The notes: generated by a model not told the origin, from the sequence alone. Positions 11,408 to 55,237 are shown, counted from the first letter of the stretch. The stretch is DNA of 64,000 bases from a virus (IMGVR_UViG_3300025676_000004:70817-134816), one strand, 5' to 3'. Made by a program: numbers and translations.

Positions 11408-12234
11408 GAATATTATTAATCCAAGAAAATGGAAGACACGAAGAGAATAGAAACTACAGAGAATGTTTTTCGTTGCAAAGGTCGTTTGAAAAGTTTGGAA
11501 ATGACTGTGATGTGTGGGGATTTGGACACGACAACTTTGATGTTGTTCCTGATTGGGAATCTTATGATTGGATTATTAATTTAGAAAATTATGATAGCAC
11601 TGGATGGGTGCCTGATTTGTCTGGTGTAAAGAATCCAAAGAAGTTTTTGTGGAGTATCGATGCACATTGCAGGGGAGAGGCAATTTACGAAAATACTTTT
11701 AGAATAGGCAATTATGATATTCTCTTACATTCCACGAAAGACTTTGTAAAACAAAAATACCATCGTTGGTTTCCGAATGCATTCGATGATTCATTAATAA
11801 AACCATTGGACATCGAAACAAAATACGAATTGGGTTTCTGTGGAAACTATGTAAACAGAAAACCAATTCTGGAATGGTTAGAACAGAATCACGGACTACA
11901 TCTGGACATATTCGTAATCGGTGATGCTATGGTAGAAGCAGTCAATTCTTATAAATGTCAATTTAATCTTAATATTGGAAACGATATAAACTATAGGTCG
12001 TTTGAAACTATAGGTTGTGGTACACTTCTTCTTACGAACCACAACTATCAGTATGAAGAACTTGGTTTTGTTGATGGTAAAAATTGCCTAATGTACAAAA
12101 ATCAAAATGAACTAGAAGAAAAAATTCAGTTCATCAAAACTAATAATGTTGAAGAAATTGCAAACAAAGGTTTTGAACTTTCTTTGAATAACACATATAA
12201 TAATAGAGTAGAAGAACTACTAAGAAATGAATAA
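11404..12234 (+). CDS. Glycosyltransferase, GT-B (CgeB-like)
   Basis: GFCG, INYRSFETIGCGTLLLT; TTG start overlapping the previous stop, GGAG RBS. Confidence 0.75.
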   Translation: MRILLIQENGRHEENRNYRECFSLQRSFEKFGNDCDVWGFGHDNFDVVPDWESYDWIINLENYDSTGWVPDLSGVKNPKKFLWSIDAHCRGEAIYENTFRIGNYDILLHSTKDFVKQKYHRWFPNAFDDSLIKPLDIETKYELGFCGNYVNRKPILEWLEQNHGLHLDIFVIGDAMVEAVNSYKCQFNLNIGNDINYRSFETIGCGTLLLTNHNYQYEELGFVDGKNCLMYKNQNELEEKIQFIKTNNVEEIANKGFELSLNNTYNNRVEELLRNE

Positions 12235-41336: not shown

Positions 41337-41842
41337 CACGAATTAAAGTGAACATACCCGAAGCAGTTTCGGGTGATTTTAGAATTGAGAAAATTAAAAC
41401 AGACCACTATTGTGGCAGTGATGAACCGTTAGATACCTATACGGTTCTTTTTAATCCACACCACAATATAATGCAAGACACCACAAGAGAATATAAAGAA
41501 CACGAACAGTTCCTAAAAGATGCACACGGTGATGTATTGGTCGCAGGTCTTGGTATTGGTATGATTCACCAATCACTCATCGACAATCCCAATGTAAAAT
41601 CTGTAACCATTGTAGAGAAGTATCAAGAAGTAATTGATATGGTATGGGAACACTGTCCGAAAGATGGAACTTTCAGATTAGTTCACGCAGACATCTATGA
41701 ATGGCAACCCGATTCCAAATGGGATATGGGGTGGTTTGATTCTTGGGTTGGTGAGAACGAACAAAACGAATATAAGAAATTAATGAAAGAACAATATGGT
41801 TCTTCTGTTTCTGATATTCGGTTTTGGAATAGGATGGCGTAA
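41333..41842 (+). CDS. SAM-dependent methyltransferase (spermidine-synthase-like fold)
   Basis: GDVLVAGLGIG, VTIVEK, AD, WFDSW. Confidence 0.7.
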   Translation: MTRIKVNIPEAVSGDFRIEKIKTDHYCGSDEPLDTYTVLFNPHHNIMQDTTREYKEHEQFLKDAHGDVLVAGLGIGMIHQSLIDNPNVKSVTIVEKYQEVIDMVWEHCPKDGTFRLVHADIYEWQPDSKWDMGWFDSWVGENEQNEYKKLMKEQYGSSVSDIRFWNRMA

Positions 41843-41915
41843 CACACCCGGCAGGACTCGAACCTGCGACTGCCGGATTAGAAATCCGATACTCTATCCA
41901 CTGAGTTACGGGTGC
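41843..41915 (-). tRNA. tRNA-Arg(TCT)
   Basis: Cloverleaf; GTTCGAGTC T-loop; anticodon loop TTTCTAA. Confidence 0.93.
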
Positions 41916-41925
41916 AGAATTCTAC

Positions 41926-42060
41926 TTATCTTTTTTTTGGTTTGATTAGTTTGGAATCTTTTTTTGGTTTCTTCCTAAAACATTTTTCCCAATTCTTACG
42001 ATATTGGTCTTCATCAGTAGGCCTACGCTTACTGCCTTTTCCTGCTTGACCGTCAACCAT
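41926..42060 (-). CDS. Small basic phage protein (44 aa)
   Basis: Manually read ORF: GKGSKRRPTDEDQYRKNWEKCF. Confidence 0.6.
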   Translation of the reverse strand: MVDGQAGKGSKRRPTDEDQYRKNWEKCFRKKPKKDSKLIKPKKR

Positions 42061-42274
42061 CGCAGTCACAACACTTACCCATAATTCGTTTCAACAAACT
42101 ACATTTCGTAGTTCTGCAACATTCAACATCCCAACAATCACCTTCTGTAATTTCGGATGGAACTTTTTCAATATTATCCATTGCTCGTTCTGATGTTTTT
42201 TGAGTTTCTTTTTCTGTTAGCATTACTGTAACGGAAACGCCGTCAATCACAACTTTACCATAATAATAATTCAT
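42053..42274 (-). CDS. Small Cys-rich hypothetical protein
   Basis: AGGAG RBS, ORF. Confidence 0.6.
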   Translation of the reverse strand: MNYYYGKVVIDGVSVTVMLTEKETQKTSERAMDNIEKVPSEITEGDCWDVECCRTTKCSLLKRIMGKCCDCDG

Positions 42275-42286
42275 ACCAATTCTCCT

Positions 42287-42898
42287 TTAAATATCAATCT
42301 CTTGCCAATCTTTTTCTGCAACCAAATGCATTGACCAATTTCCGAATCCTGTTTGTGGGGATTCTACTGTTTCACCAACTTCTTCAAAGATGAATGGTCT
42401 ACCATTTACCATTGAAGTATAAATCGGTGAATCATATCCCATACGACCTTTCGCAAACACTTCTTTCTTTCCATATCCCAACCAATTGTTTTCACACTTA
42501 TTTGTACCAATCAGATATGCTTTACTGTCACCCTTGATTGCTCCCTTTGGAACAAACAAAATAGAATCTTGGTCAAACATCTCACCAAACTCTCGCAAAT
42601 CCTTTTCAAGATTTCCGTTGTCCACCAAGTCAACTACGAAGTAACTAATCTCAGTAACACTCTTGCCACCTTCTGGATATTTGCCGTGTAGTTTAGTAAC
42701 ACCATATCCCTTGCTCTTTAGTTTGGCAAGAAGTGACTTGTTTCGTTGTGCGTTTTGTTTATTGGTGAAAGGTGTTCCTTCACCACAATCTGGTCCTTTG
42801 CGGAACGCCGTCAATGCACCACAATTGTGTTCTTCGTTATGTTTCCATAAACGAGAGAGTGATGACTCGTTGATAAATTGTTTATATTGTTTACTCAT
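42287..42898 (-). CDS. Conserved T4-like hypothetical protein
   Basis: NESSLSRL, TAFR, G.Y.E, FDQDSILF. Confidence 0.75.
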   Translation of the reverse strand: MSKQYKQFINESSLSRLWKHNEEHNCGALTAFRKGPDCGEGTPFTNKQNAQRNKSLLAKLKSKGYGVTKLHGKYPEGGKSVTEISYFVVDLVDNGNLEKDLREFGEMFDQDSILFVPKGAIKGDSKAYLIGTNKCENNWLGYGKKEVFAKGRMGYDSPIYTSMVNGRPFIFEEVGETVESPQTGFGNWSMHLVAEKDWQEIDI

Positions 42899-43078
42899 CG
42901 CAATTCTTCTTTAGATTTCCTTCGTGAATTCTTAGGACACTTGGTTTTCTTACCCCAAGTCTTTGCCCTATTTATAGGAGTTCCGTTACCGTCCCTCTCT
43001 GATGTTTTGTCTTTTGTTGTTTGTTTCATCATAAAGTATTTATACAAGTTTCGCCATATTCCGTTCACTCATACTAAT

Positions 43079-43106
43079 ATTATACTCTATAATTATACAA
43101 TGTCAA
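43079..43106 (-). promoter_or_regulatory. Promoter TTGACA-N16-TATAAT, ATG 6 nt downstream
   Basis: Perfect hexamers on the minus strand. Confidence 0.8.
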
Positions 43107-43135
43107 ATGAATAAACTGTGCTATACTCTGCAAAA

Positions 43136-43209
43136 CGAGATGGAAGGGACTCGAACCCTCAACCTTCGGCTCGACAGGCCGATGTTCTAACCAATTGAAC
43201 TACCATCCC
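43136..43209 (-). tRNA. tRNA-Asp(GTC)
   Basis: Cloverleaf; anticodon loop CTGTCGA. Confidence 0.93.
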
Positions 43210-43215
43210 AAAAAA

Positions 43216-43580
43216 GACGGCAGGGAATCTTTTCTCTCTCCCAAAAAAAGACTCTACCTGCCGCCCACTTCATAAAATTAAATCGTTCCTAGTGAGGGCC
43301 ACTCACTCTAGTCCTAATGAATCCTACATCATCTTCACACCCGAAGGTGTCACCGAAGGCCTTGTAACGGAAGGAACGAATTATTTATACGGCGGTTTGG
43401 ATAAGCGTTGCGTTTTTCACTTCGTCCAATTAGTCCCTCTGTCTAGAACTTGGGATTACTGATTGTGCTTATGCACCACCGATTTGTTCAGTCACGGAGT
43501 TTGTACAGGTCATGACCCCTGCACTTTTTTATTCAATTATCAAAGAAATCCGATGATGGGGTTTCCCCCACCATCAGAGG
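43216..43580 (-). ncRNA. Candidate structured non-coding RNA(s) upstream of tRNA-Asp
   Basis: ORF-poor, GC-richer stretch with multiple stems, UUCG and GAAA loops, and an internal TATAAATA. Confidence 0.5.
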
Positions 43581-43602
43581 GGGCGTCAATTCAAAACTTG
43601 TA

Positions 43603-43854
43603 TCAAACAAGTCCTGCCTTGATTGCGAATGGGTTGTCAGTGTAACCACTAAAATCCATTCCATAACAAATAACACCGTTGTCAAGTGTGCGTGTGGAAA
43701 CTTCCCAATTTCCGTATGCTTCAACTTGACCTTTGATGTTGCTCATAGTTGCACGAAGATTCTTCACACCAAAACGGCTGTATGCTTGCTTAGGTGTGAT
43801 GTCATTACCACGGGCAAGGTGGTTGATAACTCGTTGTTTCTTTGTGTAGGTCAT
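43603..43854 (-). CDS. Winged-HTH DNA-binding protein
   Basis: KKQRVINHLARG..ITPKQA.SRFGVKNLRA. Confidence 0.7.
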   Translation of the reverse strand: MTYTKKQRVINHLARGNDITPKQAYSRFGVKNLRATMSNIKGQVEAYGNWEVSTRTLDNGVICYGMDFSGYTDNPFAIKAGLV

Positions 43855-43937
43855 AATAAAAACTCCAATATACGGTACTTCAAAATTCAAAGGTTGGATG
43901 TCACCGCAAGCATCTGTTCCCTTATTGTTATAATAGT

Positions 43938-43965
43938 ATTATAGACTATATTGAACGCCGTTCAA
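43938..43965 (-). promoter_or_regulatory. Promoter TTGAAC-N16-TATAAT
   Basis: Hexamers on the minus strand upstream of the HTH gene. Confidence 0.7.
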
Positions 43966-44183
43966 GTCTTTTTTTGTACGAATTCGTAAATTTTTTCTGC
44001 TTCGTTCCGAATGGCTTCTGTTGATGGAAATTCTGGTCTTTCCTTAACAGGGCATTCGCCTGTTAGTTGCTCATCAAATTGCCAGTTGTTCCAAACTTCG
44101 TGGTCTGAATAGAACTTGTCTAATAGACCTTGCTTTGCTTCTTGCCAAATTTCAAACCGTAAACTGTAAGGGTTGTCACTCAT
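43962..44183 (-). CDS. Conserved small T4-like protein
   Basis: NPYSLR.EI..EAK...FP....I..EAEKIYEFV; AAGGAG RBS. Confidence 0.7.
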   Translation of the reverse strand: MSDNPYSLRFEIWQEAKQGLLDKFYSDHEVWNNWQFDEQLTGECPVKERPEFPSTEAIRNEAEKIYEFVQKKT

Positions 44184-44216
44184 TTTATTTCTCCTTGTGT
44201 GTATGTGCGACTGTGT

Positions 44217-44264
44217 GTTGAGAACACCGTGTTCTCGTAAGTTGAGAACACCGTGTTCTCGTAA
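44217..44264. repeat. Tandem 24-bp repeat, each unit containing the palindrome GAGAACAC-C-GTGTTCTC
   Basis: GTTGAGAACACCGTGTTCTCGTAA x2. Confidence 0.95.
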
Positions 44265-44274
44265 TTATGTATAA

Positions 44275-44347
44275 TGGGTCGGGTGGGACTCGAACCCACG
44301 ACTCTCGCATTAAAAGTGCGATACTCTGCCGACTGAGTTACCGACCC
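44275..44347 (-). tRNA. tRNA-Lys(TTT)
   Basis: Cloverleaf; anticodon loop CTTTTAA. Confidence 0.93.
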
Positions 44348-44352
44348 GAAGG

Positions 44353-44733
44353 TCAGTGTTTCTTTATTATAGGTAACGGTGCTTCATAGTATATGTCGAG
44401 TCCAACTGCCTTTGCAGTATGCCATTCGGCCTTGGCGCCACGACTCTCTTCCCAACCCCACATCATATAAATTGCAGTACATTCTTCACAAATAACAACC
44501 AAGTCTCTCTTGAGTGCTTCACGCATAAATTCACGGTCTTCATAATTTGTTTCGGGGTCAAACTCTAAATGGCCGCCGGGGGGTTCTCCCTCTTCTCTAT
44601 CCATCTGAGCAGGATTGATAACTCGCCAACCTTGTTCTTCAAGAATTGTTGCTTGACGGTCGAACGCAGGGAAGTTTCCTTCCTCATATCCTCGCATCGG
44701 TCCTGCGATATAGATTGTTGGTTGTCTATTCAT
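44353..44733 (-). CDS. DUF4406 / nucleoside deoxyribosyltransferase-like protein
   Basis: IYIAGPMRG, NFPAF, INPA, GWEESRGAKAE. Confidence 0.82.
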   Translation of the reverse strand: MNRQPTIYIAGPMRGYEEGNFPAFDRQATILEEQGWRVINPAQMDREEGEPPGGHLEFDPETNYEDREFMREALKRDLVVICEECTAIYMMWGWEESRGAKAEWHTAKAVGLDIYYEAPLPIIKKH

Positions 44734-44936
44734 CCTGACTCTTCTTCAAATCGTGCTTTGATTTCCTGTTGAACATAATAATCTTCAAGGACTTCTCTAA
44801 GATTTTGATTTGCATCTCTCAGTTCATCTGAAAGTTTTTCAGCAATCCTCATATGTTTCCTATAATGTAACATACAGTTAAAAATATACAAGTTATAACC
44901 TATCAGAAAACAAATAATGATATATTCAAACATCAT
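44730..44936 (-). CDS. Small membrane-anchored protein
   Basis: N-terminal TM segment plus coiled coil. Confidence 0.55.
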   Translation of the reverse strand: MMFEYIIICFLIGYNLYIFNCMLHYRKHMRIAEKLSDELRDANQNLREVLEDYYVQQEIKARFEEESG

Positions 44937-45582
44937 TCCACTCTTTTAATATGACCTTCGCCTCGTTATCACCACGGGTCTTCAGTATCTCTTGACCCTT
45001 CAGACCAATCCAAGCATCGAATTCATTGGTAAACCTTGCACCACCGTTATCAATAACATCAGCACCCATAAACTCACCAGTGACAAAGCAGTATGCACAG
45101 TCAGAACCCATCGGTAAGATATACTTTGGGTCAAGCAATTTCTTACGAACCTCTTCAAGTTCTTCTTCAGACATATCTGGTTCTAATCGTTTTTCAATTG
45201 GGACCCAAGGAATATCGAAATCGCTCATTGCATATGCAAATGCAAGTGCCTCTGCACTCGCCCAAGATACATCATATTCTTCATACAGTTTATGAAACAA
45301 CACAGTCATATACTGTGCCTTCGCTTCTGTCATTTTTGATTCTTCCCAAGAAAAAGTATGGAATCCGTTTGGACTTGAAAATCCCCACATCTTCACTGTT
45401 CTTACACAGTCATCGCCAAACTTGACGAAGTAACCTTCTTCATCATGGATTTCTTCTGCCCAATCGCCGTCTTTGTCATATCCGTGTTCCATCATAACAG
45501 ACACACTGATATTTTTTTCTGTCAAGTAGGAATCTACTTCCTCTTGAGTCATTGAACATAGTCTTGATTTTTCTTTTTCCAT
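44926..45582 (-). CDS. Hypothetical protein (leaderless start)
   Basis: ORF; ATG 6 nt after the -10 box. Confidence 0.7.
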   Translation of the reverse strand: MEKEKSRLCSMTQEEVDSYLTEKNISVSVMMEHGYDKDGDWAEEIHDEEGYFVKFGDDCVRTVKMWGFSSPNGFHTFSWEESKMTEAKAQYMTVLFHKLYEEYDVSWASAEALAFAYAMSDFDIPWVPIEKRLEPDMSEEELEEVRKKLLDPKYILPMGSDCAYCFVTGEFMGADVIDNGGARFTNEFDAWIGLKGQEILKTRGDNEAKVILKEWNDV

Positions 45583-45588
45583 ACGCAT

Positions 45589-45616
45589 AGTATACCACAG
45601 ATAGAACGGAAGTCAA
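45589..45616 (-). promoter_or_regulatory. Promoter TTGACT-N16-TATACT
   Basis: Hexamers with TG extension. Confidence 0.75.
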
Positions 45617-45769
45617 CTACAAAGTGTATGCAAAATACATCACAGTCCATATGCCTAACATACAAACCACAGTGATAACGCCAATTGATATAAGTGCCAC
45701 TCTATATTTTCTTTGGCGTTCTCTTATTGCTTCTGGTGTTTCTTTTTTTTTGTAATAGATGTTTATCAC
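45617..45769 (-). CDS. Small membrane protein
   Basis: GTGA overlap with the guaC stop; C-terminal TM segment. Confidence 0.5.
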
Positions 45770-46809
45770 GAATCCCCAAATACCACATTCAACTGGCGAT
45801 TTACCCGAACGAATGTAGTACATTTCGGCAATTGCTTGATTGTCCTTGCACCTGTATAAGTACAGGCACTTCGCACCCCACCCATAATATCCTGTAGGGT
45901 ATTTTCTACAGCACCTCGACATGACACCTTCACTGTCTTACCCTCTGATGCTTTGTAGGTTGCGACACCACCACTATGCTTCTTCATAGCAGTATCACTA
46001 GACATACCATAGAACACCTTGTGAGACGCTCCTGAGTCGTCTGTAACGACTTCTCCTGCACATTCTTCGTGTCCTGCAAGCATTCCTCCCAACATAACGA
46101 AGTCTGCTCCTGCACCGAATGCTTTTGCAATGTCGCCAGGGCATTGACATCCACCATCCGCCATAATAAATCCGTTTAGTCCATGAGCGGCATCTGCACA
46201 TTCCATCACGGCGGATAATTGCGGGAAACCGACTCCCGCTTTTTTGCGAGTTGTGCAAACAGAACCTGGTCCGATGCCAATCTTTACAATGTCTGCACCC
46301 GCAAGGATAAGTGCTTCAGTCATTTCTGCTGTAACTACATTCCCTGCAATAATAATTTTCTCTGGCCACTTGTCCTTGACATCTTTTACAAAATCAACAA
46401 ATCGTTGAGTGTAACCGTTTGCAACATCCAAGCAGAAGAATGGTTTATGTTTGGCGAATTCAGAAAGATTACTCGCACCATCATTAGTGAGCAATTGCAT
46501 CTCTGCATCTTCATTCATTCCAAACGAAATTGCCAAGTTGTTATCTCCAAACGAATCACCATAATTCAAATGACTTATATGTTTACTTAAACAAGTCAAC
46601 ATACTATGCTTGGACAATGCTTCGCCCATTTCAAGTGTTCCGATTGTATCCATATTGGCGGCGACAATTGGAACACCAATCCATTCTTTGCCATTTTTGA
46701 ATATAAAGTTTCGGTATAAATCTACTTGCTTGCGGGAAGTTAGTGTTGACCTCTTTGGTCTAATAAGAACATCTGCATAATCAAGTTTCACATCATCTAA
46801 AATTTTCAT
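45766..46809 (-). CDS. guaC: GMP reductase
   Basis: [46 protein letters not shown]. Confidence 0.95.
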
Positions 46810-46824
46810 TAATCAATCTCCAAG

Positions 46825-46897
46825 TGGGACGAGTGGGACTTGAACCCACGAAAATAGAGGTATAAACTCTACTGCTGATACCATCCGCTTCCGTCCC
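46825..46897 (-). tRNA. tRNA-Ile(TAT)
   Basis: Acceptor stem GGGACGG/TCGTCCC, anticodon loop TTTATAC, GTTCAAGTC; weak D-arm. Confidence 0.8.
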
Positions 46898-46913
46898 ATA
46901 TAATACACACATT

Positions 46914-47174
46914 CTACAGTGAAGTAGATTTAATGTCAATAGTAATCTTCTTATTACTTACATGACCATTTTCATTCTTGTCAAGGTAATTGGACTTCTG
47001 CCTGTCTTCATCAAAACCAAGACGATAACCAACTTTACTGACACCGTGCATTTCCATTTTCATACACTGATGTCTATCATCGTGAAACAACCATTCCATT
47101 AGATGTTGAGAAGTATGAATTGCCTTCTCTTCATCTGTTCCAAGTGGAATGTCAATATGTAATCTATATTGCAT
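46914..47174 (-). CDS. Hypothetical protein
   Basis: AAGGAG RBS before MQYRLHIDIPLG. Confidence 0.7.
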   Translation of the reverse strand: MQYRLHIDIPLGTDEEKAIHTSQHLMEWLFHDDRHQCMKMEMHGVSKVGYRLGFDEDRQKSNYLDKNENGHVSNKKITIDIKSTSL

Positions 47175-47193
47175 AACTAACTCCTTTGTAACA

Positions 47194-47266
47194 TACGAGT
47201 GGTGGGACTTGAACCCACACTTGAGGGATTTTAAGTCCCTTGCCTCTGCCATTGGGCTACACTCGC
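47194..47266 (-). tRNA. tRNA-Leu(TAA), short variable loop
   Basis: Cloverleaf; anticodon loop CTTAAAA; 73 nt. Confidence 0.9.
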
Positions 47267-47285
47267 TTAACTCTCTCAGGAAAAA

Positions 47286-47359
47286 TGACCCCAAGGAGAT
47301 TTGAACTCCTGTTTTCAGGATGAAAACCTGATGTCCTAACCGAACTAGACGATGGGGTC
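47286..47359 (-). tRNA. tRNA-Glu(TTC)
   Basis: Cloverleaf; anticodon loop TTTTCAT. Confidence 0.92.
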
Positions 47360-47560: not shown

Positions 47561-47795
47561 CTGTATTTTCCTTTGCAAAATCAAACGACATTTGCTCGGT
47601 ATCTTCTTGTGCAATATAATTCCTTACTTCAAGAATCAATTCAACAAGATTATCAAGTTCGTCTACGGTATAACCATCCATCGCTTCTTTAACATTCCAG
47701 TTATTGAATGTTGCCAATAATTCGTTATCAAAACCATCTACCACTTCGATTGATGGTGATGGATTTCCTTCAACTTTTGAATTAAATATTTTCAT
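47550..47795 (-). CDS. Hypothetical protein
   Basis: ORF in the operon. Confidence 0.6.
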   Translation of the reverse strand: MKIFNSKVEGNPSPSIEVVDGFDNELLATFNNWNVKEAMDGYTVDELDNLVELILEVRNYIAQEDTEQMSFDFAKENTDES

Positions 47796-48264
47796 TTACA
47801 ATCTCCTTCAACTCTACATCAATATTTTCACTTGTTGTAAATTTGTTTACCGAATCTACACGAAAAGAACGCCAACCATTTTTGTCAGTACACCACGCAG
47901 AAATTACTTCTTGCTTTGAAACAGTATTGTTACCTTTTGGGTGGTGTTCTTCGGGAATTTGGTAGAAGTCTAATGTGCAAGGCATCACTCGTTCTTCGCC
48001 ATTCTTCTTTGTAAAAGTCACTTCACAAATACCTTTGCTCAATTCATTTTTCATTACATTATAAGAGAAAATCTCTTTAACATTTTTTGGGAAAATCCCA
48101 GTTCGTTCAATCTTCATAAAATCTCCATTCTCTAATTGTATTGTATCAATGTCTCCAGACAAATCAACTTCAACCAACTTTGCATCAATCATATCACCGT
48201 GAATGTCTTTGGCGATTACATCATCGCCAAGACTAATCATATAACCAGAACCTTTATCACTCAT
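47782..48264 (-). CDS. WYL-like (SH3-fold) T4-family protein
   Basis: VTFTKKNGEERVMPCTL, WRSFRVDSV. Confidence 0.75.
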   Translation of the reverse strand: MSDKGSGYMISLGDDVIAKDIHGDMIDAKLVEVDLSGDIDTIQLENGDFMKIERTGIFPKNVKEIFSYNVMKNELSKGICEVTFTKKNGEERVMPCTLDFYQIPEEHHPKGNNTVSKQEVISAWCTDKNGWRSFRVDSVNKFTTSENIDVELKEIVNENI

Positions 48265-48653
48265 CTTGGAAGTCCTTCATAACCACTGGTTTGTTGTTCG
48301 CTCGTAACGATTTCTGTACCAGTTTCGGTAACAGTACCGTCAGGATTTAGAATACGCCGAGTCGTGGACTTGTGTGTTGCGTAACCTTTACGCTCTCGTC
48401 TTTGCCACTCTTCGTATCGTACACGCTCTTCGGCCGCCGCAACTTGTGCCGCAGTCTTTTGCTTATTGTCCTTATCGACTTCTTCGAGAATTAGACCAGA
48501 AGCGGCACCAATACCTGCACCAATCAAAGTTGCAGTAGTGTTACCACCAATCGCTTGACCTGCAAGGGCGCCAATACCTGCACCCGCCAGTGTTCCACAA
48601 CCACCCATTATAAGGGTAGTTCCAATTAAAATTGTAATAGTTGCTTTACGCAT
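48261..48653 (-). CDS. Glycine-zipper lipoprotein
   Basis: Signal peptide ..GGC, GAGIGALAGQAIGG..T.IGAGIGA. Confidence 0.75.
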   Translation of the reverse strand: MRKATITILIGTTLIMGGCGTLAGAGIGALAGQAIGGNTTATLIGAGIGAASGLILEEVDKDNKQKTAAQVAAAEERVRYEEWQRRERKGYATHKSTTRRILNPDGTVTETGTEIVTSEQQTSGYEGLPR

Positions 48654-48802: not shown

Positions 48803-48830
48803 ATTATACACCAATTAAAACAAGTGTCAA
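48803..48830 (-). promoter_or_regulatory. Promoter TTGACA-N16-TATAAT
   Basis: Perfect hexamers. Confidence 0.85.
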
Positions 48831-48846
48831 GAATATTTATCACGAT

Positions 48847-49197
48847 TCACAACACATCCTCAGTCCAGATTCGGTCTGCAAGTTTATATTGCAGACTGTT
48901 TGCTTCTCGTTCACCCTCGCCTTGCCATTCGCCAGTAATATATTGTTTGACATGAACCATCTCATGTACAATAGTTGCCACGATGTCCCGCATAGATTGA
49001 TTGATAGAAATTTCGATGTCGTATCCGCCATCATCATTCTCTATACAAGTACCATCACAGTCATTCATCACTTTTAGTTCAAGATTTATGTCCGTATAGA
49101 GATGGTCAATCTCTTGAAAGTAATTGATACACCAATCGACTACACTATGCGCCATATACTTTTCGTACTTTTCAACTTTACCTGTTACTTCAATCAT
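48847..49197 (-). CDS. Putative zincin metallopeptidase
   Basis: HEMVHVKQY followed by E.EA. Confidence 0.72.
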   Translation of the reverse strand: MIEVTGKVEKYEKYMAHSVVDWCINYFQEIDHLYTDINLELKVMNDCDGTCIENDDGGYDIEISINQSMRDIVATIVHEMVHVKQYITGEWQGEGEREANSLQYKLADRIWTEDVL

Positions 49198-49200
49198 ATT

Positions 49201-49566
49201 TTATGCCTTCATTCCATAATTTGGTTGCCCAGATGTTGGTGTGGTTATGAATTTAAGAATATTAGACCCCTTCCGTGGCGGAACAGAATCGTCCCGAACC
49301 CACCCATTATTTATTGCAGTTTCCCATACATTCCGTGCATTTTCAAGACTCAATACTTCTCTCTTATTGCTATAGCGACCAGTAGCATCACCTTTCACAT
49401 TCACCCAAAAGACAAGTGTAGATGATGCCGCATCATCAACATACACCAGAATCCGATTGTATGATGCCTTGGGATTCCGAATACCATAGAAGGTATGAAA
49501 TTCTGGTTTCTCCCAGTGAAAGTCATCACCAACCCAAGGTTCGCCTGTGTTTGGATTCAGTTTCAT
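49201..49566 (-). CDS. Hypothetical protein, AR..W...G[WYF] family
   Basis: LSLENARNVWETAINNGW. Confidence 0.65.
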   Translation of the reverse strand: MKLNPNTGEPWVGDDFHWEKPEFHTFYGIRNPKASYNRILVYVDDAASSTLVFWVNVKGDATGRYSNKREVLSLENARNVWETAINNGWVRDDSVPPRKGSNILKFITTPTSGQPNYGMKA

Positions 49567-49727
49567 TTACCATCTCCTGCCGCAAGTACAAGTCCAACAT
49601 TTGCAAGTGCATACGATGTCCATACAAGACTCCACGCATAATCTTTTTTCAACAGATACCCTACTGCAATTATTGCATAAAGTATTGCGGCGATTAGTGG
49701 ACATACTTTTACTAACCATTCTAACAT
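49563..49727 (-). CDS. Small two-TM membrane protein (54 aa)
   Basis: Manually read MLEWLVKVCPLIAAILY...YALANVGL; coupled to neighbours at both ends. Confidence 0.7.
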   Translation of the reverse strand: MLEWLVKVCPLIAAILYAIIAVGYLLKKDYAWSLVWTSYALANVGLVLAAGDGK

Positions 49728-50203
49728 TATAATATCTCCGATGCAAGTATTCCCATTGGCTCATGTACTATATCATAATATCGAGATATTATTCTCATAA
49801 CAAGTTGTTTTGCATCTAATGAACATCCCTCAAGAAGTTTGAATGACATATCCTCTTCGTTCTCTTGGAATGTTTCGATATAGTCCTCAAACCAATTTGG
49901 AAGTATATCGTCCATCAGTTTTTGGGTTTCATAGTTTGACATTAACATACCAACCGATGTTATAAAATTCTTTGCAAGTTCTGTGCATCCATCAATTGCT
50001 TCTGTAGAAAATTCTTCGTGTTCTTTGAGTATATGTCGCAATCCCCTTCTGTCTGACATATCGTGGCAATCCATACACAGAGGAATAACCATTTTACCAT
50101 CGTACCGTTTTGGTATTGGAAAATGATGCATCTCTTTTTTCATCAATCTTCTTTCACAACAAAAACATTTCTTGTTGTCTATGTTATCATATTCTATATT
50201 CAT
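49727..50203 (-). CDS. HNH-like Zn-finger protein
   Basis: CFCC...HH..P...G....PLC..CH. Confidence 0.6.
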   Translation of the reverse strand: MNIEYDNIDNKKCFCCERRLMKKEMHHFPIPKRYDGKMVIPLCMDCHDMSDRRGLRHILKEHEEFSTEAIDGCTELAKNFITSVGMLMSNYETQKLMDDILPNWFEDYIETFQENEEDMSFKLLEGCSLDAKQLVMRIISRYYDIVHEPMGILASEIL

Positions 50204-51394
50204 TTACATATCCTCCGTTAGGCGAATACCAAGTCCAACAGGGAATCGTGGAATACCATCGTCAGTGAGTTCAAAGTATTTTACCTTCAACAACTTGCCA
50301 ACATTCTTTTCGGCATTCTGATATGTTTCCTGTCGTTCTTCCATTGTTCCCTGTGGAACAACTTTGAATGATTGACCGTCTTTGGTTTCACATATCCATA
50401 CGATACTTCCTTCAAACCTGCCAATGCCAGTAGTGAAATCTGTAATCTTATATTCACTGTCCATAAAGTTCTTCACTTTGAGGAGTTTATTAGAACGATA
50501 TCCAAATCGATATTCGCCATCCATCTCACGGACAATCGCACCTTCATAACCTTCTTCGAGGAATTGAGATTGAAGTTTGTACACTTCGTCCTCGTTGCTT
50601 GCTTCATAAGTGGCCACGGTAATAACCGAAATAATCTTACTTTCGTACAACATTCCATAAAATGCCTTGTCTAAAAGATTAAATCTCTCTTCCCAAAGGC
50701 AGGTATCATCGCCGGCCGCTCTTGGAATATCATACACATGGAACATGACTTCTTCGGATTCATTAGGACGATACTTCTTGACGAGTTTAGTAATCTCTTG
50801 AAAAGTCTTGCCATGAATATAGAGTTCTCCATCGAGTACCCATCCCTTCGGCAAGACGGTTTCAAGTTCATCAATAATATGCTGGCAACAATTCCACTGT
50901 TTACCACCACGACTCATTAGTTTCACAGAACCGCCATCCCAATATGCCAGACACCGAACACCATCTAGTTTCGGTTGGACATCTACTGGGTAAGTTACTT
51001 TGTCTTTTCGTTTATCGAAAGATGCCGCCAACATTGGAAGAAACACTTCCTTCTTGGCATCTTCAATCGTCAGACTGTATTTGGCATCAAGTCGTTTCTT
51101 GTGCATTGCTTTTGCTTCAAGGATTGCTTGCTCATCCGCAGTAGTGGCGTTTGCACGACCAACATTCTTTGGTGTTGCAGTCTTTCTTGCAGTCTGCATC
51201 TTTCCACCAATCTGTCCGTACTCTGTGCAGATGTCTGCACCTTCTGTCCATATATCCCATTGTACAATGGCATCTGTCTTACTCTTATGGTAGAGTCTTT
51301 CGTGTATAAAAAGTGTTGTTGTTTTCATTTTTTTCATTTCCTTTAATGTTGGATGTTGTAAATCGCAATGGAATTTATTCGTGTGCCGATTCAT
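50204..51394 (-). CDS. lig: ATP-dependent DNA ligase with N-terminal WGR-like domain
   Basis: PMLA, QPKLDGVRC, LDGELY, YEGAIVR, LLKVK, PRFP. Confidence 0.92.
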   Translation of the reverse strand: MNRHTNKFHCDLQHPTLKEMKKMKTTTLFIHERLYHKSKTDAIVQWDIWTEGADICTEYGQIGGKMQTARKTATPKNVGRANATTADEQAILEAKAMHKKRLDAKYSLTIEDAKKEVFLPMLAASFDKRKDKVTYPVDVQPKLDGVRCLAYWDGGSVKLMSRGGKQWNCCQHIIDELETVLPKGWVLDGELYIHGKTFQEITKLVKKYRPNESEEVMFHVYDIPRAAGDDTCLWEERFNLLDKAFYGMLYESKIISVITVATYEASNEDEVYKLQSQFLEEGYEGAIVREMDGEYRFGYRSNKLLKVKNFMDSEYKITDFTTGIGRFEGSIVWICETKDGQSFKVVPQGTMEERQETYQNAEKNVGKLLKVKYFELTDDGIPRFPVGLGIRLTEDM

Positions 51395-51891
51395 TCTGCA
51401 TACATCCTTTTTTTTAATGTTTTTGATATGTCAGATATATTACAGGGTTTTCCGTTCATTGTTACATTCCCATCTTCATCCTCTGGTACACTCCAACTGG
51501 CAGTCTTACTTTCTTTTCTATAGTTAAAATTTTCACCTGCCCATTCAGACCTGCCACCCTTGAGAAAGTCTTCTACTTCGGCAACTTCATAATCGCCATG
51601 TTCCACCCACAAGTTCCAACACTCTCTTGCATCTTTGACAGACATCACTTCTATATTATCTTTTGAATTGGTTTCCTGCATAGTATTTTTGCGAACACCA
51701 GTAAGTTTTCTAGGATTCATAAAAGGGTCGCCTTGATAGAAAGATATTAATTCCACTCTATCCTTATTCTCATCAGGACGATTTGTTGCTGTTAGTGGTC
51801 GAAAATAGATTTCCCAACCTTTGTCGTTTTGGATTTTGTATAGTTTTTCTGCCATTGCTTCTTTCACAAGTTTGTGTTCTTCGATATTCAT
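51391..51891 (-). CDS. Hypothetical protein, AR..W family
   Basis: MSVKDARECWNLWVEHG. Confidence 0.65.
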   Translation of the reverse strand: MNIEEHKLVKEAMAEKLYKIQNDKGWEIYFRPLTATNRPDENKDRVELISFYQGDPFMNPRKLTGVRKNTMQETNSKDNIEVMSVKDARECWNLWVEHGDYEVAEVEDFLKGGRSEWAGENFNYRKESKTASWSVPEDEDGNVTMNGKPCNISDISKTLKKRMYAE

Positions 51892-52091
51892 TTTTTCACA
51901 CTCTTTCGCCAAAAAGGATAGTCTAACGCAGGATATCCACAATCCCTCTGCTCTTGCAATTTTTTTGCTAATCGTTGCAATTCATTACGAGAGTTCTCAT
52001 CGACAGTCCCCTTCGCCGTTTCCCCAAGGATTCCCTGTAGTAAATTGATTTCACCCCAAGTCAATATAAAGTTATGTACTGATGCCGCCAT
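51888..52091 (-). CDS. Hypothetical protein
   Basis: Coupled ORF. Confidence 0.55.
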   Translation of the reverse strand: MAASVHNFILTWGEINLLQGILGETAKGTVDENSRNELQRLAKKLQEQRDCGYPALDYPFWRKSVKK

Positions 52092-52297
52092 TAATCGCCT
52101 CTCATATATCCTGTTTTCACCAAATAGTCCCAGTGTTGTCGTGCTGTAATCAAAGTACAATTGTCTACAGTGTGACTATTTTGCAAGGTACCATTGAAGA
52201 AGAGATGAATATTAATACAATGTCCTTTTGCCGTCAAACTAAATTCTTGACGAATAGTATTATGGAGAGCATCAGTATGTACGAGTGAATATCTCAC
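52091..52297 (-). CDS. Hypothetical protein, AR..W family
   Basis: TLITARQHWDYLVKTGY. Confidence 0.6.
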   Translation of the reverse strand: MRYSLVHTDALHNTIRQEFSLTAKGHCINIHLFFNGTLQNSHTVDNCTLITARQHWDYLVKTGYMRGD

Positions 52298-52629
52298 AGT
52301 GTGGGATGTTCCATTTCTTCAAAGGCAAAATCGTCATCAAATACACCACTCATATATTCAGAGGATGCTTGTAATTTATTTTCATTGTTTTTTGCATCGA
52401 GACCCGTGAGTTGTTCAATGCTTACAATAGAAGATACCGTATAATTCTCCCATTGTTCCGAATTGACATTGAATGCTACGATAGTCTCAATATGTTCACG
52501 GGGTATGTTACCATCTTGTGTTGCGGATAAATGTTGAGGTGCGAGTGTGAGCATTACAGATTCGCCATTATCATGTATGACTTCTGTGATGCCATTCAAT
52601 AGTGTTTGTAGTATGTGTGCTTTGTTCAT
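52294..52629 (-). CDS. Hypothetical protein (divergent WYL-like)
   Basis: TL.P.HL...AFNV....W..Y.V.SI resembles 47782-48264. Confidence 0.55.
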   Translation of the reverse strand: MNKAHILQTLLNGITEVIHDNGESVMLTLAPQHLSATQDGNIPREHIETIVAFNVNSEQWENYTVSSIVSIEQLTGLDAKNNENKLQASSEYMSGVFDDDFAFEEMEHPTL

Positions 52630-52678
52630 TTGTATATTTTACCTTAAATGTGTTGGTGTGTAAAGGGGGTGTGTCTGT

Positions 52679-52837
52679 CTATTTTGAAAAAGATTGCATC
52701 CAATGTACCAAGTGGCGATGTGCATCGTATTTGGTAATCTTGAAATGGTCGATAAGGTACGGAACGGCATCTAGCATATTGATTTTGCCAGAGAGGCGGA
52801 GTTCATCGAGGTATGTGAATACTTCTTCTTGAGTCAT
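52679..52837 (-). CDS. Small conserved phage protein
   Basis: YLDELRLSG.INM..A.PYL...F......A...L..WM. Confidence 0.7.
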   Translation of the reverse strand: MTQEEVFTYLDELRLSGKINMLDAVPYLIDHFKITKYDAHRHLVHWMQSFSK

Positions 52838-53050
52838 TTGTTTTTCCATCCTTCTTGGATTTTCTCGTCCCATATTTGTCTGGCACGCTTAATGCCTGTT
52901 CGGGAGTCTTCATTGGTATGCTCACAGACAATGCGAACAACATCCCCATCGGGAATAAAATTCATTGTGCCTAGTGTTGGGTGTGTGATGGTGTGACATC
53001 CCATGTCTTGTGCAATCCTCATTTGAGTCATTTGTTTTTCCATCCTTCTT
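52829..53050. repeat. 28-bp direct repeat at 52829-52856 and 53023-53050
   Basis: TTGAGTCATTTGTTTTTCCATCCTTCTT x2. Confidence 0.9.
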
Positions 53051-53280
53051 CGCCCTTGCTTTTTGAGTTCTTCATAGAAGCAAGTAATCTTTTCGGGTTT
53101 GCTCATCTTGCCATAGCGAGTGGACAATTGACTATCGGTCATTGATGCCACTCTATCTTGTTCGTGTTGTCTTGTTTTGTTCATTACCTTTTTTGCCCGT
53201 GGTATTATGGTGTTTTTGCCAGCGGCGTATTGCCCTCGAAAAAAAGGGACCACCTTTTTCGCTGTACACTGTTTATTCAA
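52834..53280 (-). CDS. Hypothetical protein, AR..W family C-terminus
   Basis: IKRARQIWDEKIQEGW. Confidence 0.6.
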   Translation of the reverse strand: MNKQCTAKKVVPFFRGQYAAGKNTIIPRAKKVMNKTRQHEQDRVASMTDSQLSTRYGKMSKPEKITCFYEELKKQGRRRMEKQMTQMRIAQDMGCHTITHPTLGTMNFIPDGDVVRIVCEHTNEDSRTGIKRARQIWDEKIQEGWKNK

Positions 53281-53615
53281 ATCTGGTCGTCATCCCAATC
53301 GAGTGGCGTGTTATTTTGATAATCATCCCATCCATCAGACTCTGGTTCTGGTAAGTTACCTTCCAAATCGCCAGCAACCAATTGATTCAAGTGTTCGTGA
53401 ATTCGTTCATCCATCGCAACAACATAATCACATTCATCTTCACTGAAGTGGTCGGTAGTCGTGCCACTGAAGATACTACCAAGTAACACAGCACCACCGA
53501 TGAGGTCGTTAGTGAGTTCTTGTTCGGGTATGAAGTTTGCGTGGACCAGTTTCTCATCAAGCAATCGTAATGCGAGAATAGCGTCAGAGATGAGTGTGGA
53601 TGTTGTTGGGTGCAT
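53277..53615 (-). CDS. Acidic hypothetical protein
   Basis: AAGGA RBS before MHPTTS. Confidence 0.6.
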   Translation of the reverse strand: MHPTTSTLISDAILALRLLDEKLVHANFIPEQELTNDLIGGAVLLGSIFSGTTTDHFSEDECDYVVAMDERIHEHLNQLVAGDLEGNLPEPESDGWDDYQNNTPLDWDDDQI

Positions 53616-53776
53616 AGAGTGTTTCCTTTGCGTTTCAGTCAATAAATTGGTAGTCAGAGGGTTTCCCCTGTGCTACCTTACCATCGTTCATTTTATAGTG
53701 AGAACATACGGCAAGCACTAATGGCGTTTCGAGTCATCTCAATAAGAGAATTGCCAAGTGACATCCATATAATATA

Positions 53777-54139
53777 CTACATAATTTCTTGATATGCTTG
53801 TTCATCGACATTGACCATTGGGTCGTCTTCAATGAAGTCCATCTCTCCATCGTCCTCAGTGTGTTCACCAGGCGATACCGCAAGGACATCTGTGTCCTCT
53901 AGAGGGTCGATGACCACTTCAGGAATCAGGAAGACACCACGGGCAACACGGCGACTCTGGTCGTGTGTAATCCAATTGGGAATCCAAATCTTTCCCTTCA
54001 TCTTCATTGAAATCTGGCGCAGTTCAGCACGAGAATATTCAGTCTTGGTCGTGTCGATGTTGAGGTCAGGTGCATTGGTGCGAATCGCATCCACATATAC
54101 CTTCTGTCGGTTTGTCAAGTTGTTATAAATCATTTCCAT
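53777..54139 (-). CDS. Stand-alone paralog of the AAA+ N-terminal domain with an acidic tail
   Basis: IPNWITHDQSRRVARGVF vs PPSWLTQDSARKVGRGLY. Confidence 0.7.
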   Translation of the reverse strand: MEMIYNNLTNRQKVYVDAIRTNAPDLNIDTTKTEYSRAELRQISMKMKGKIWIPNWITHDQSRRVARGVFLIPEVVIDPLEDTDVLAVSPGEHTEDDGEMDFIEDDPMVNVDEQAYQEIM

Positions 54140-54152
54140 TGTAATTGCTCCT

Positions 54153-54341
54153 TCAGCAAAATTGTCCGTTAGCATCCATTGTTGCTAACAATTCGTATCC
54201 ATTGGCGGTAAGTCCACCATTTTCATCAATGAGGCATGCCTCATCAGGGTCTTCATCATCCCAGATAACATCGTAATCGCCAGTTTCATCGTAATCGCCA
54301 GTTTCATCGGCGAGGTCTTCTTCAGGGTCGGTCCACGGCAT
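54153..54341 (-). CDS. Highly acidic small protein with an internal 18-bp duplication
   Basis: DETGDY x2. Confidence 0.6.
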   Translation of the reverse strand: MPWTDPEEDLADETGDYDETGDYDVIWDDEDPDEACLIDENGGLTANGYELLATMDANGQFC

Positions 54342-54474
54342 CGGGTCGCTCCCTATATTCTTTAACAAGTGTGGCAGCATAGATGTCTTCAACAGAGAAT
54401 GTCCATTCGCCGAGATTTTCGTCCCATTCGGCGATTCCTTTTTCTTCCAACCATAGCAGGTATTCTTTCATCAT
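54322..54474 (-). CDS. Small protein (50 aa), leaderless
   Basis: Manually read MMKEYLLWLEEKGIAEWDENLGEW. Confidence 0.6.
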   Translation of the reverse strand: MMKEYLLWLEEKGIAEWDENLGEWTFSVEDIYAATLVKEYRERPDAVDRP

Positions 54475-54480
54475 ACTCAT

Positions 54481-54508
54481 ATTATACCTCAGAGGCGACC
54501 GTGGTCAA
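54481..54508 (-). promoter_or_regulatory. Promoter TTGACC-N16-TATAAT
   Basis: Hexamers; ATG 6 nt downstream. Confidence 0.8.
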
Positions 54509-55008
54509 GAGTTTTCCCACGATTCTACTCGAATATAACCGGCTTCGATTGCTTCGTCCCATCGTTTACGACCATCTTCAAGAGTGAGATATTCGGTCGC
54601 CAGTTCACCCATACCAGTGGGGATAAATTTCACCACATCTTGGTCATAGAAGAATTGTACTTTGAATTGGGGGTCGTTGTTTGACTTGTGTATACCATAC
54701 TCGGTGAAGTTGCCTGCCTCATCAGTAAATCGTTCGGATTGTGCTTTTGTGATTTTGCCGAATTGACCGATAATCATTTCATTATCGTTCAGCCAGTCCC
54801 GAACCAATGTACCATTGTCATGTATTTGTTCAAGAATTTTACCTGCCGGCATCCACCAAGTTTTCTCTTCTTGATTCCAGCGGCCGCCATGTTGCTTGAC
54901 AGAATCTTTCTCGTCAAACAGAACAGCCAGCCTATACCCCTCAAATACGCATTCTTTTTCGTACTTGGTGTAGTTCTCACGGAATTTGTTTATTTCATTC
55001 GATTTCAT
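54505..55008 (-). CDS. DUF5710-like N-terminal domain plus AR..W family C-terminal domain
   Basis: V.FDEKD.VK..GGRWN...K.WW; LTLEDGRKRWDEAIEAGY. Confidence 0.65.
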   Translation of the reverse strand: MKSNEINKFRENYTKYEKECVFEGYRLAVLFDEKDSVKQHGGRWNQEEKTWWMPAGKILEQIHDNGTLVRDWLNDNEMIIGQFGKITKAQSERFTDEAGNFTEYGIHKSNNDPQFKVQFFYDQDVVKFIPTGMGELATEYLTLEDGRKRWDEAIEAGYIRVESWENS

Positions 55009-55237
55009 AGTTGTTCGTGAATCCTTGTTTGATTAGGGAGTTCCAAAATGTTCTTGCACGGTCTGTCATGTAGTTCCCGCCGGCCATGGCAGAATCATAT
55101 GTCCGCCACCCGTGTCCGTCATCGATTAATACCACAACGCATCCGTCTTGCGGTTTAAACATGTACTGGCATCCCGTGTCATGATTGATTAGACAGAAGT
55201 CTTTTGAACGGAGAACTGAACTACTCAAAATGGACAC
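54995..55237 (-). CDS. Hypothetical protein, AR..W family
   Basis: MTDRARTFWNSLIKQGF. Confidence 0.6.
   Translation of the reverse strand: MSILSSSVLRSKDFCLINHDTGCQYMFKPQDGCVVVLIDDGHGWRTYDSAMAGGNYMTDRARTFWNSLIKQGFTNNYEIE

Follow-up and report, generated by a model that had tools for sequence, protein, structure and literature searches.

A multi-copy family of small strand-plus-helix domains downstream of cobS in an uncultured marine T4-like phage appears to be a diverged branch of DUF1651

Why do six small proteins encoded close together in one phage genome carry the same short string of residues, A-R-x-x-W-x(5,6)-G-aromatic? The stretch of DNA in question, IMGVR_UViG_3300025676_000004:70817-134816 (64,000 nucleotides, hereafter the window), corresponds to the final 64 kb of an IMG/VR virus record of 134,816 bp, which CheckV rates as linear and ~75% complete. 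Its source is an uncultured marine T4-like phage. The CobS-like AAA+ protein encoded in the window is 47-48% identical to CobS of Pelagibacter phage HTVC008M and of cyanomyoviruses, the DNA of the region had zero matches among GenBank phages, and psbA was not found in the record, incomplete as it is. All six open reading frames (ORFs), here P1 to P6, lie on the minus strand within 6 kb downstream of cobS. The original prediction, drawn from the DNA alone, had taken the string as the mark of a C-terminal module resembling WGR or DUF1651, attached to different N-termini and shuffled as a mobile domain within an expanded host-takeover or anti-defense family. The best overall explanation in our analysis, which we hold at a probability of about 0.7, is that the six are old, strongly diverged paralogs of one ~70-residue, DUF1651-like domain, in which the motif would form the core of the fold and which would serve as an adaptor module.

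Six copies of one diverged domain

The six ORFs and their motifs are as follows, in window coordinates.

49201-49566, minus strand: P1, 121 amino acids (aa); module at about residues 20-95, with a short N-terminal extension and a tail of ~30 residues
49300-49338, minus strand: P1 motif, ARNVWETAINNGW
51391-51942, minus strand: P2, 183 aa from a TTG start; a probable ATG at 51891 gives 166 aa; tail of ~65 residues after the module
51589-51630, minus strand: P2 variant motif, ARECWNLWVEHGDY
52091-52297, minus strand: P3, 68 aa, a bare module; its GTG start codon shares bases with the upstream gene's stop codon (GTGA)
52106-52144, minus strand: P3 motif, ARQHWDYLVKTGY
52834-53280, minus strand: P4, 148 aa; gene callers begin at M46, giving 102 aa
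52846-52884, minus strand: P4 motif, ARQIWDEKIQEGW
54505-55008, minus strand: P5, 167 aa; DUF5710 at residues 27-62 (54823-54930), a linker, and the module at about residues 97-165
54535-54573, minus strand: P5 motif, GRKRWDEAIEAGY
54995-55237, minus strand: P6, 80 aa, a bare module directly after cobS
55019-55057, minus strand: P6 motif, ARTFWNSLIKQGF

Written as [AG]R..W.{5,6}G[WYF], the motif matched five times when the entire record of 134,816 bp was translated in six frames, each time on the minus strand at 49.3-55.1 kb. Residue shuffles within all 1,384 open frames averaged 0.04 matches and never exceeded 1. P2 is the exception: an additional residue separates its glycine from the aromatic (...HGDY), as also in its orthologs (HGGY, HGDF), so that five of the six fit the pattern as first written. 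A hidden Markov model (HMM) built from the six exposed no seventh member among all ORFs of the record. When each member was left out in turn, the omitted protein ranked best of 2,209 non-training ORFs every time (E 2e-6 to 0.02, with P2 at 0.022). This test is partly circular, as the six had been chosen by the motif, and the genome-wide motif count is the cleaner statistic.

Profile-profile comparison with hhalign between the phage subfamilies reached up to 91%, always aligning the same region and spanning 52-74 columns under relaxed settings; P4, for instance, matched the P5, P6, and L21-type subfamilies at 83-91%. In the phage alignments the arginine and tryptophan of the motif were invariant and its alanine and glycine were at least 90% conserved, all within the helix described below, while mean column identity outside the helix was 13-19%. 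Module length was constant at ~65-75 residues. Together with the structural models, these results bear out the proposal of one diverged domain family with a shared fold. Its description as a C-terminal module on varied N-termini needs qualification. P2 and P1 continue well past the module and P3 and P6 are essentially bare modules; the fusions in P4 and P5 agree with it.

Start sites and partner domains could be refined by comparison with relatives. The orthologs of P2 begin as if from the ATG at 51891, and those of P6 conserve residues upstream of Met26, so that its long GTG start is favored. P4 consists of a conserved N-terminal domain (..HEQDRV..MTDSQLSTRYGKM..KI..FY..) followed by the module. 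The DUF5710 domain of P5 (PF18974; residues 27-62) scored 35.3 bits (E 9.5e-9), above the gathering threshold of 26.5 bits, and the same annotation was precomputed on most P5-type homologs.

Predicted fold and structural neighbors

The AlphaFold model of P6, built from the whole-family alignment, had a mean predicted local distance difference test score (pLDDT) of 76.8 and a predicted template modeling score (pTM) of 0.63; that of P5, from its own subfamily alignment only, had values of 87.5 and 0.80. In the P6 model, strands at residues 14-17, 24-30, 33-39, and 44-46 are followed by a helix at 58-70 and a strand at 74-75. In the P5 model, strands at 102-107, 114-120, 125-131, and 139-142 are followed by a helix at 143-155 and a strand at 159-161. 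The order of elements is identical, that is, b-b-b-b-helix-b, and the models support the view that the motif is the helix of a small strand-plus-helix domain rather than a tag.

An exhaustive VIA-align search with P5 residues 97-167 gave 2een (6.8), 2fjt (6.7), and 2ra8_A residues 1-76 (6.6), with the WGR domains of PARP1 and PARP3 at 5.4 and 5.2. P5 and P6 shared six of their top ten PDB neighbors (2ra8, 2een, 2fjt, 2dc4, 7s68, and 2cr9), which is indirect but independent evidence that the two predicted modules have one fold. On this common-fold check, run on P5 and P6, the expectation that the predicted structures would agree was borne out in both topology and neighbors. Residues 1-76 of 2ra8_A were the top or third structural neighbor of the two models, and both modules aligned to this WGR domain over 62-64 residues. 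A WGR profile made from Pfam-positive cyanobacterial domains matched 2ra8_A residues 5-72 at E 6e-20, so this neighbor is a real WGR domain. Foldseek returned zero rows at E <= 0.001 for both models against PDB and for P6 against BFVD. Among the BFVD rows for P6, at E 0.04-0.3, were two phage proteins named as 'WGR domain', a PARP-like ADP-ribosyltransferase from a phage, and small proteins encoded by the Synechococcus phages S-CAM8 and S-PM2. A search of PDB sequences with the family profile yielded nothing significant (XRP2 at E 1.3), and ESM Atlas gave no usable match for P6.

A further resemblance was to CYTH / triphosphate tunnel metalloenzymes (2een, 2fjt, 2dc4, 3typ, and 7z67). Judged by target length (146-178 residues in the single-domain entries), these domains are roughly double the length of the module, so that it can correspond to no more than a portion of one; unlike in these enzymes, no catalytic acidic motif is found among the conserved columns of the family. 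We read the similarity as a shared local arrangement.

Relationship to DUF1651 and WGR

P1 matched Pfam DUF1651 (PF07864) below threshold, with 15.7 bits and an E of 0.02 over positions 46-69 of the 74-position profile. Sub-threshold matches to this family occurred in 4 of the 25 members recovered by an iterated HMM (see below) and in 5 of a set of 81, with a best E of 0.002. Beyond DUF1651, no family was matched by two or more of the 25; in the set of 81, 12 members matched DUF6440 (every match sub-threshold, with a best E of 0.018), and two or three members matched each of several further families. The PF07864 annotation was on none of the top 120 database homologs. In ESM Atlas, the nearest named clusters to P1 were all DUF1651, at 0.82-0.84, scores too low to be taken as anything beyond a lead.

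For a direct comparison we used true DUF1651 genes from five picocyanobacterial genomes, which were located by a 16S probe pattern. The copy from coliphage ECBP5 had been considered as a seed and was rejected for its sub-threshold score of 12.9 bits. By hhalign, the phage family matched 26 or 14 bona fide DUF1651 sequences at 92.9% (E 3.7e-7, 58 columns) and 93.5% (E 2.3e-7, 29 columns), against 0.1% in controls with reversed columns. Individual subfamilies scored 80% (P5), 77% (P6), 71% (P1), and 57% (P4) against DUF1651, similar to the values between phage subfamilies. The rankings were reciprocal: in a search of 3,183 ORFs from 60 cyanobacterial loci with the phage HMM, the top six were all DUF1651 ORFs and no WGR ORF was picked, and when 19,019 phage ORFs were searched with the DUF1651 HMM, 10 of the 20 best matches were family members. 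The suggested kinship to DUF1651 thus held up. A beta-1 strand motif in common with DUF1651 was also sought with a crude regular expression, gave uninformative counts, and was dropped. No DUF1651 structure was found in PDB by sequence.

DUF1651 proteins (e.g., SYNW1658 of Synechococcus WH8102) likewise have a domain of ~70-80 residues that ends in a helix of the form A-x-x-x-W-x-x-L-x-x-x-G-W, and true members with the endings ...EEARLLWQKLLNEGW and ...DKAREEWKKFLEQGW resemble the phage motif. They too are multi-copy: the five genomes (loci L204-L233) contained 4, 5, 7, 8, and 15 copies that scored above the Pfam cut-off, some of them with in-frame stops and thus maybe pseudogenes. The phage members differ in falling below the Pfam cut-off and in being mostly acidic, with a median isoelectric point (pI) of 5.5 versus 9.4 for DUF1651 and 9.0 for WGR. 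They also differ from the DUF1651 of picocyanobacteria in residing in a T4-like phage and in being fused, in some copies, to DUF5710 or a P4-type N-terminal domain. Outside cyanobacteria, DUF1651 was known in 2017 only from coliphage ECBP5 (PMC5490813).

The WGR side of the original prediction was supported in predicted shape only, not in sequence. WGR domains (PF05406; PARP1/2/3 and the bacterial Q64V53, which is 2ra8) have a small antiparallel sheet, then a helix, then a last strand, and their helix ends in Gly-aromatic (...KKGY), an arrangement that the predicted phage module resembles. Unlike WGR, the phage module lacks a sequence signal and the W-G-R strand motif, has a predicted helix ~4 residues shorter, and is acidic. 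Pfam WGR had no match in the whole record at E <= 10, and when the phage family was compared by hhalign with 29 WGR domains from cyanobacteria, the probability was 1.0% (E 0.057), about as little as for DUF1651 against WGR (0.9%). The W-G-R strand motif was not conserved; a G-W-R string occurred in the P6 subfamily only. Taken together, profile comparisons and models support the view that the domain belongs to a phage branch of the DUF1651 superfamily, with a predicted WGR-like shape at the level of the fold only.

Distribution and turnover among related phages

Eighty cobS-centered IMG/VR loci were fetched for comparison, in which 26 of 28 loose-motif matches were on the cobS strand downstream of cobS. 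An iterated HMM converged on 25 members from the window and cobS-linked IMG/VR loci, all of them downstream of cobS, with six in one locus (L007), three in another (L014), and two in several others. A profile search of 1.84 billion representative proteins gave 53 matches at E <= 0.001, of which ~48 were true (clusters at 50% identity). A collection at 90% identity comprised 260 clusters from JGI, ENA, NCBI, Logan, Tara, and metaclust, and those with named sources were all called hypothetical. By type, 67 clusters were P5-type, 49 P6-type, 6 P2-type, and 3 P4-type; DUF5710 plus module, the P5-type, was the most widespread architecture. For P1 and P3, no relative beyond this record was found.

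Across ten close loci, cobS, o132, orf52, and the WYL_2 gene were widely kept. P5 was retained in seven of the ten, P6 in three, P2 in one (L007, again directly before a ligase), and P1, P3, and the P4 module in none. Given the low retention of P1-P4 and P6 beside kept flanking genes, the module repertoire turns over much faster than its surroundings. The family is thus small, marine, present in multiple copies in related phage contigs, and quick to change between relatives, in line with the predicted expansion and diversification.

Part of this variation was seen against L002, the closest locus by CobS (79%). Between orf52 and a small transmembrane (TM) gene, the window holds ~3.8 kb extra (48820-52630, versus L002 5172-5276) with P3, P2, the ligase, a Zn-ribbon ORF, a TM ORF, P1, and a SprT-like ORF. 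Most ORFs of this block had no tblastn match in the 12-kb L002 locus; only o54TM matched, elsewhere, at 12005. The segment looks like a flexible gene block.

Domain recombination and a 28-nucleotide repeat

The P4-type N-terminal domain was found with three unrelated module subtypes, in P4 itself, in L018/P0035, and in P0032, and in L002 it is joined to a C-terminus that lacks the motif. The metagenomic protein P0028 joins a homolog of the local gene at 51888-52091 to the final strand and helix of a module. These cases support domain recombination among paralogs, which is the part of the shuffled-mobile-domain claim that stood; DUF5710 plus module is a stable combination, and autonomous mobility is not supported.

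A perfect 28-nucleotide direct repeat, with copies 194 nucleotides apart, brackets the P4 module.

53023-53050, direct repeat: copy A, encoding the linker RRMEKQMTQ between the P4 N-terminal domain and the module
52829-52856, direct repeat: copy B, encoding in one frame the end of the P4 module, (Q)EGWKNK-stop, and in another the start, MEKQMTQ, of the downstream small gene (52679-52846)

That small gene (minus strand) belongs to the orf52 family (M..Q.TQ..V..FLD.LR.SGK.NM...), with homologs in L002, L005, L015, and L018 that indicate a true start at the MEKQMTQ within the repeat rather than at the ATG farther upstream, where the 64-aa ORF begins. A ~99% identical strain, present in contigs of two other studies, has the same fusion of N-terminal domain and module. 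Its differences cluster only within copy A, where 53027-53048 shows 4 substitutions and lacks 12 nucleotides, which makes the repeat strain-specific and recent. A search of IMG/VR contigs, a set that may exclude this record and near-identical ones, did not recover the 28-mer. We considered the repeat as the footprint of a cassette insertion and rejected this, as the near-identical strain keeps the fusion and differs only inside copy A. We read it instead as recent short-patch copying between gene junctions, not as a scar of the module's arrival.

Genomic surroundings

Start/stop overlaps tie two of the six to their upstream genes, P1 (ATGA) to a 54-aa TM gene and P3 as listed above, and P2 lies directly upstream of a DNA ligase gene, an adjacency repeated in L007. 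Other features of the region are as follows.

54153-54392: acidic ORF, with a perfect tandem 18-nucleotide duplication at 54269-54304 that encodes ETGDYD-ETGDYD
54508-54481, minus strand: near-consensus sigma-70-type promoter match (11/12), directly after the P5 stop
51888-52091, minus strand: small conserved gene between P3 and P2 (..DENSRNELQRLAKKLQEQRDCGYPALDYPFWR..), whose likely ATG overlaps the P3 stop; homologs in L007 and L015
50204-51394, minus strand: ATP-dependent DNA ligase gene
48847-49197, minus strand: gene for a SprT-like HExxH protein (Pfam E 0.005, sub-threshold)
48830-48803, minus strand: near-consensus sigma-70-type promoter match (12/12)
48261-48653, minus strand: glycine-zipper lipoprotein-like gene
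47782-48264, minus strand: gene for a WYL_2 Sm-like protein (E 5e-14)
41842-47359, minus strand: six tRNA genes (Arg-tct, Asp-gtc, Lys-ttt, Ile-tat, Leu-taa, and Glu-ttc), with small ORFs interspersed among them, immediately downstream of the region

Both promoter matches lie between minus-strand genes, and sigma-70-like matches were the only promoter matches seen on that strand. They would fit the early expression assumed in the original prediction, driven by the host polymerase, and are not proof of it. The ligase has an N-terminal extension. Its best solved relative was 6imj (E 1e-30), which we take to be the ligase of African swine fever virus, and the alignment runs from query residue 39 and residue 46 of the 419-residue chain, thus beginning upstream of the Pfam ligase domain (from query residue 120). 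The N-terminal domain of the African swine fever virus ligase binds DNA.

Discussion

How might such a domain work? It would be built from an antiparallel sheet of four strands, a single amphipathic helix, and a short strand at the end. It is the whole protein in P3 and P6, has a tail in P1 and P2, and is fused to other small domains in P4 and P5. The string A/G-R-x-x-W-x-x-[LI]-x-x-x-G-aromatic would be the helix itself. Its i, i+4, i+7/8, i+12 spacing would set the A, W, L/I, and final aromatic on one face packing against the sheet, with the glycine ending the helix, so that the motif may be conserved for holding the fold together, and specificity would reside in the highly variable strands, loops, and N-terminal fusions. 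Most likely, the copies are small binding or adaptor modules, each for a different partner, that would be made from the cobS-side block soon after infection. Protein partners seem favored over direct binding of nucleic acids because the phage modules are acidic, while DUF1651 and WGR domains are basic (pI 9.0-9.4).

Several points weigh against this picture. The best family member reached 15.7 bits, and none attained the DUF1651 gathering score of 22 bits. With default settings, the confident hhalign stretch covered only 29 columns, the last strand plus the helix, and the signal shared with DUF1651 is therefore dominated by the motif. P2 was the weakest member, at most 22% by hhalign. AlphaFold models were made for two of the six proteins, P5 and P6, from separate alignments. 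Finally, the binding-module mechanism, probable as it may be, and the preference for protein partners draw all their support from charge and analogy.

Other readings were also weighed. The paralogs could be anti-defense or host-takeover effectors, as originally predicted, each neutralizing a different host protein with an arms race driving their diversification. Their small genes sit among orphan genes with sigma-70-like promoters, the copies turn over fast among close relatives with their flanking genes retained, the modules are acidic or neutral, and host DUF1651 genes are induced on cyanophage infection (PMC5490813), all of which would suit such a role. Yet scans of the six proteins against PADLOC, NCBIfam, and PHROGs returned only noise, with no similarity to known anti-defense or defense families, and the most conserved member, the DUF5710-fused P5, resembles a core function rather than an arms-race gene in being kept in seven of ten loci. 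We regard this as a possibility on the unlikely side. The WGR neighbors of the models (2ra8 and PARP1/3), the BFVD rows with a phage PARP-like ADP-ribosyltransferase and phage WGR proteins, the kept adjacency of P2 to the ATP-dependent ligase, and the SprT-like HExxH and WYL_2 proteins nearby would alternatively suggest sensors of nucleic acids or DNA ends, working with the phage ligase and repair genes, detecting nicks or ends as the WGR domains of PARPs do, and recruiting or regulating the enzymes encoded beside them. The profile-profile link to WGR of 1% is not significant, the W-G-R strand motif is unconserved, with invariant residues only in the helix, and the modules are mostly acidic where WGR and DUF1651 domains are basic; this makes sensors a rather improbable account.

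Another notion would be that only the ~13-residue helix is shared, as a docking motif acquired by convergence or exon-like transfer, with unrelated strands upstream. Column identity of 13-19% outside the helix, the 29-column confident core, and P0028, where a different domain is joined to the module's last strand and helix alone, are what it would lead one to expect. It is very unlikely in view of two independent AlphaFold models that set the helix at the same place of the same four-strand sheet, the alignment of both whole modules over 62-64 residues to the same WGR domain, relaxed hhalign alignments of 52-74 columns between subfamilies and 58 to DUF1651, and the constant module length. The phage copies might also be acidic counterparts of a basic stress-response domain of the host (DUF1651/WGR-like), serving as decoys or hijackers in a host pathway that infection or DNA damage turns on, an idea that we consider a long shot. 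The DUF1651-like adaptor module, with the motif as the core of its fold, remains our preferred explanation.

In practical terms, these results allow better annotation of the orphan genes beside cobS in this phage clade, and the recurrent motif would be explained as a fold core rather than a docking tag. The proteins are small and soluble-looking, which suits them to structural work, and the biological value of the results hinges on finding the partners. If the copies did prove to be decoys, a widespread family of T4-like phages would offer the first experimental handle on the function of DUF1651 proteins. The most abundant marine phototrophs carry DUF1651 in multiple copies, and these genes respond to phage infection (PMC5490813). 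Uncultured marine T4-like phages would carry their own diverged, expanded, and fast-changing branch of it, tying an orphan family of the host to an orphan family of the phage.

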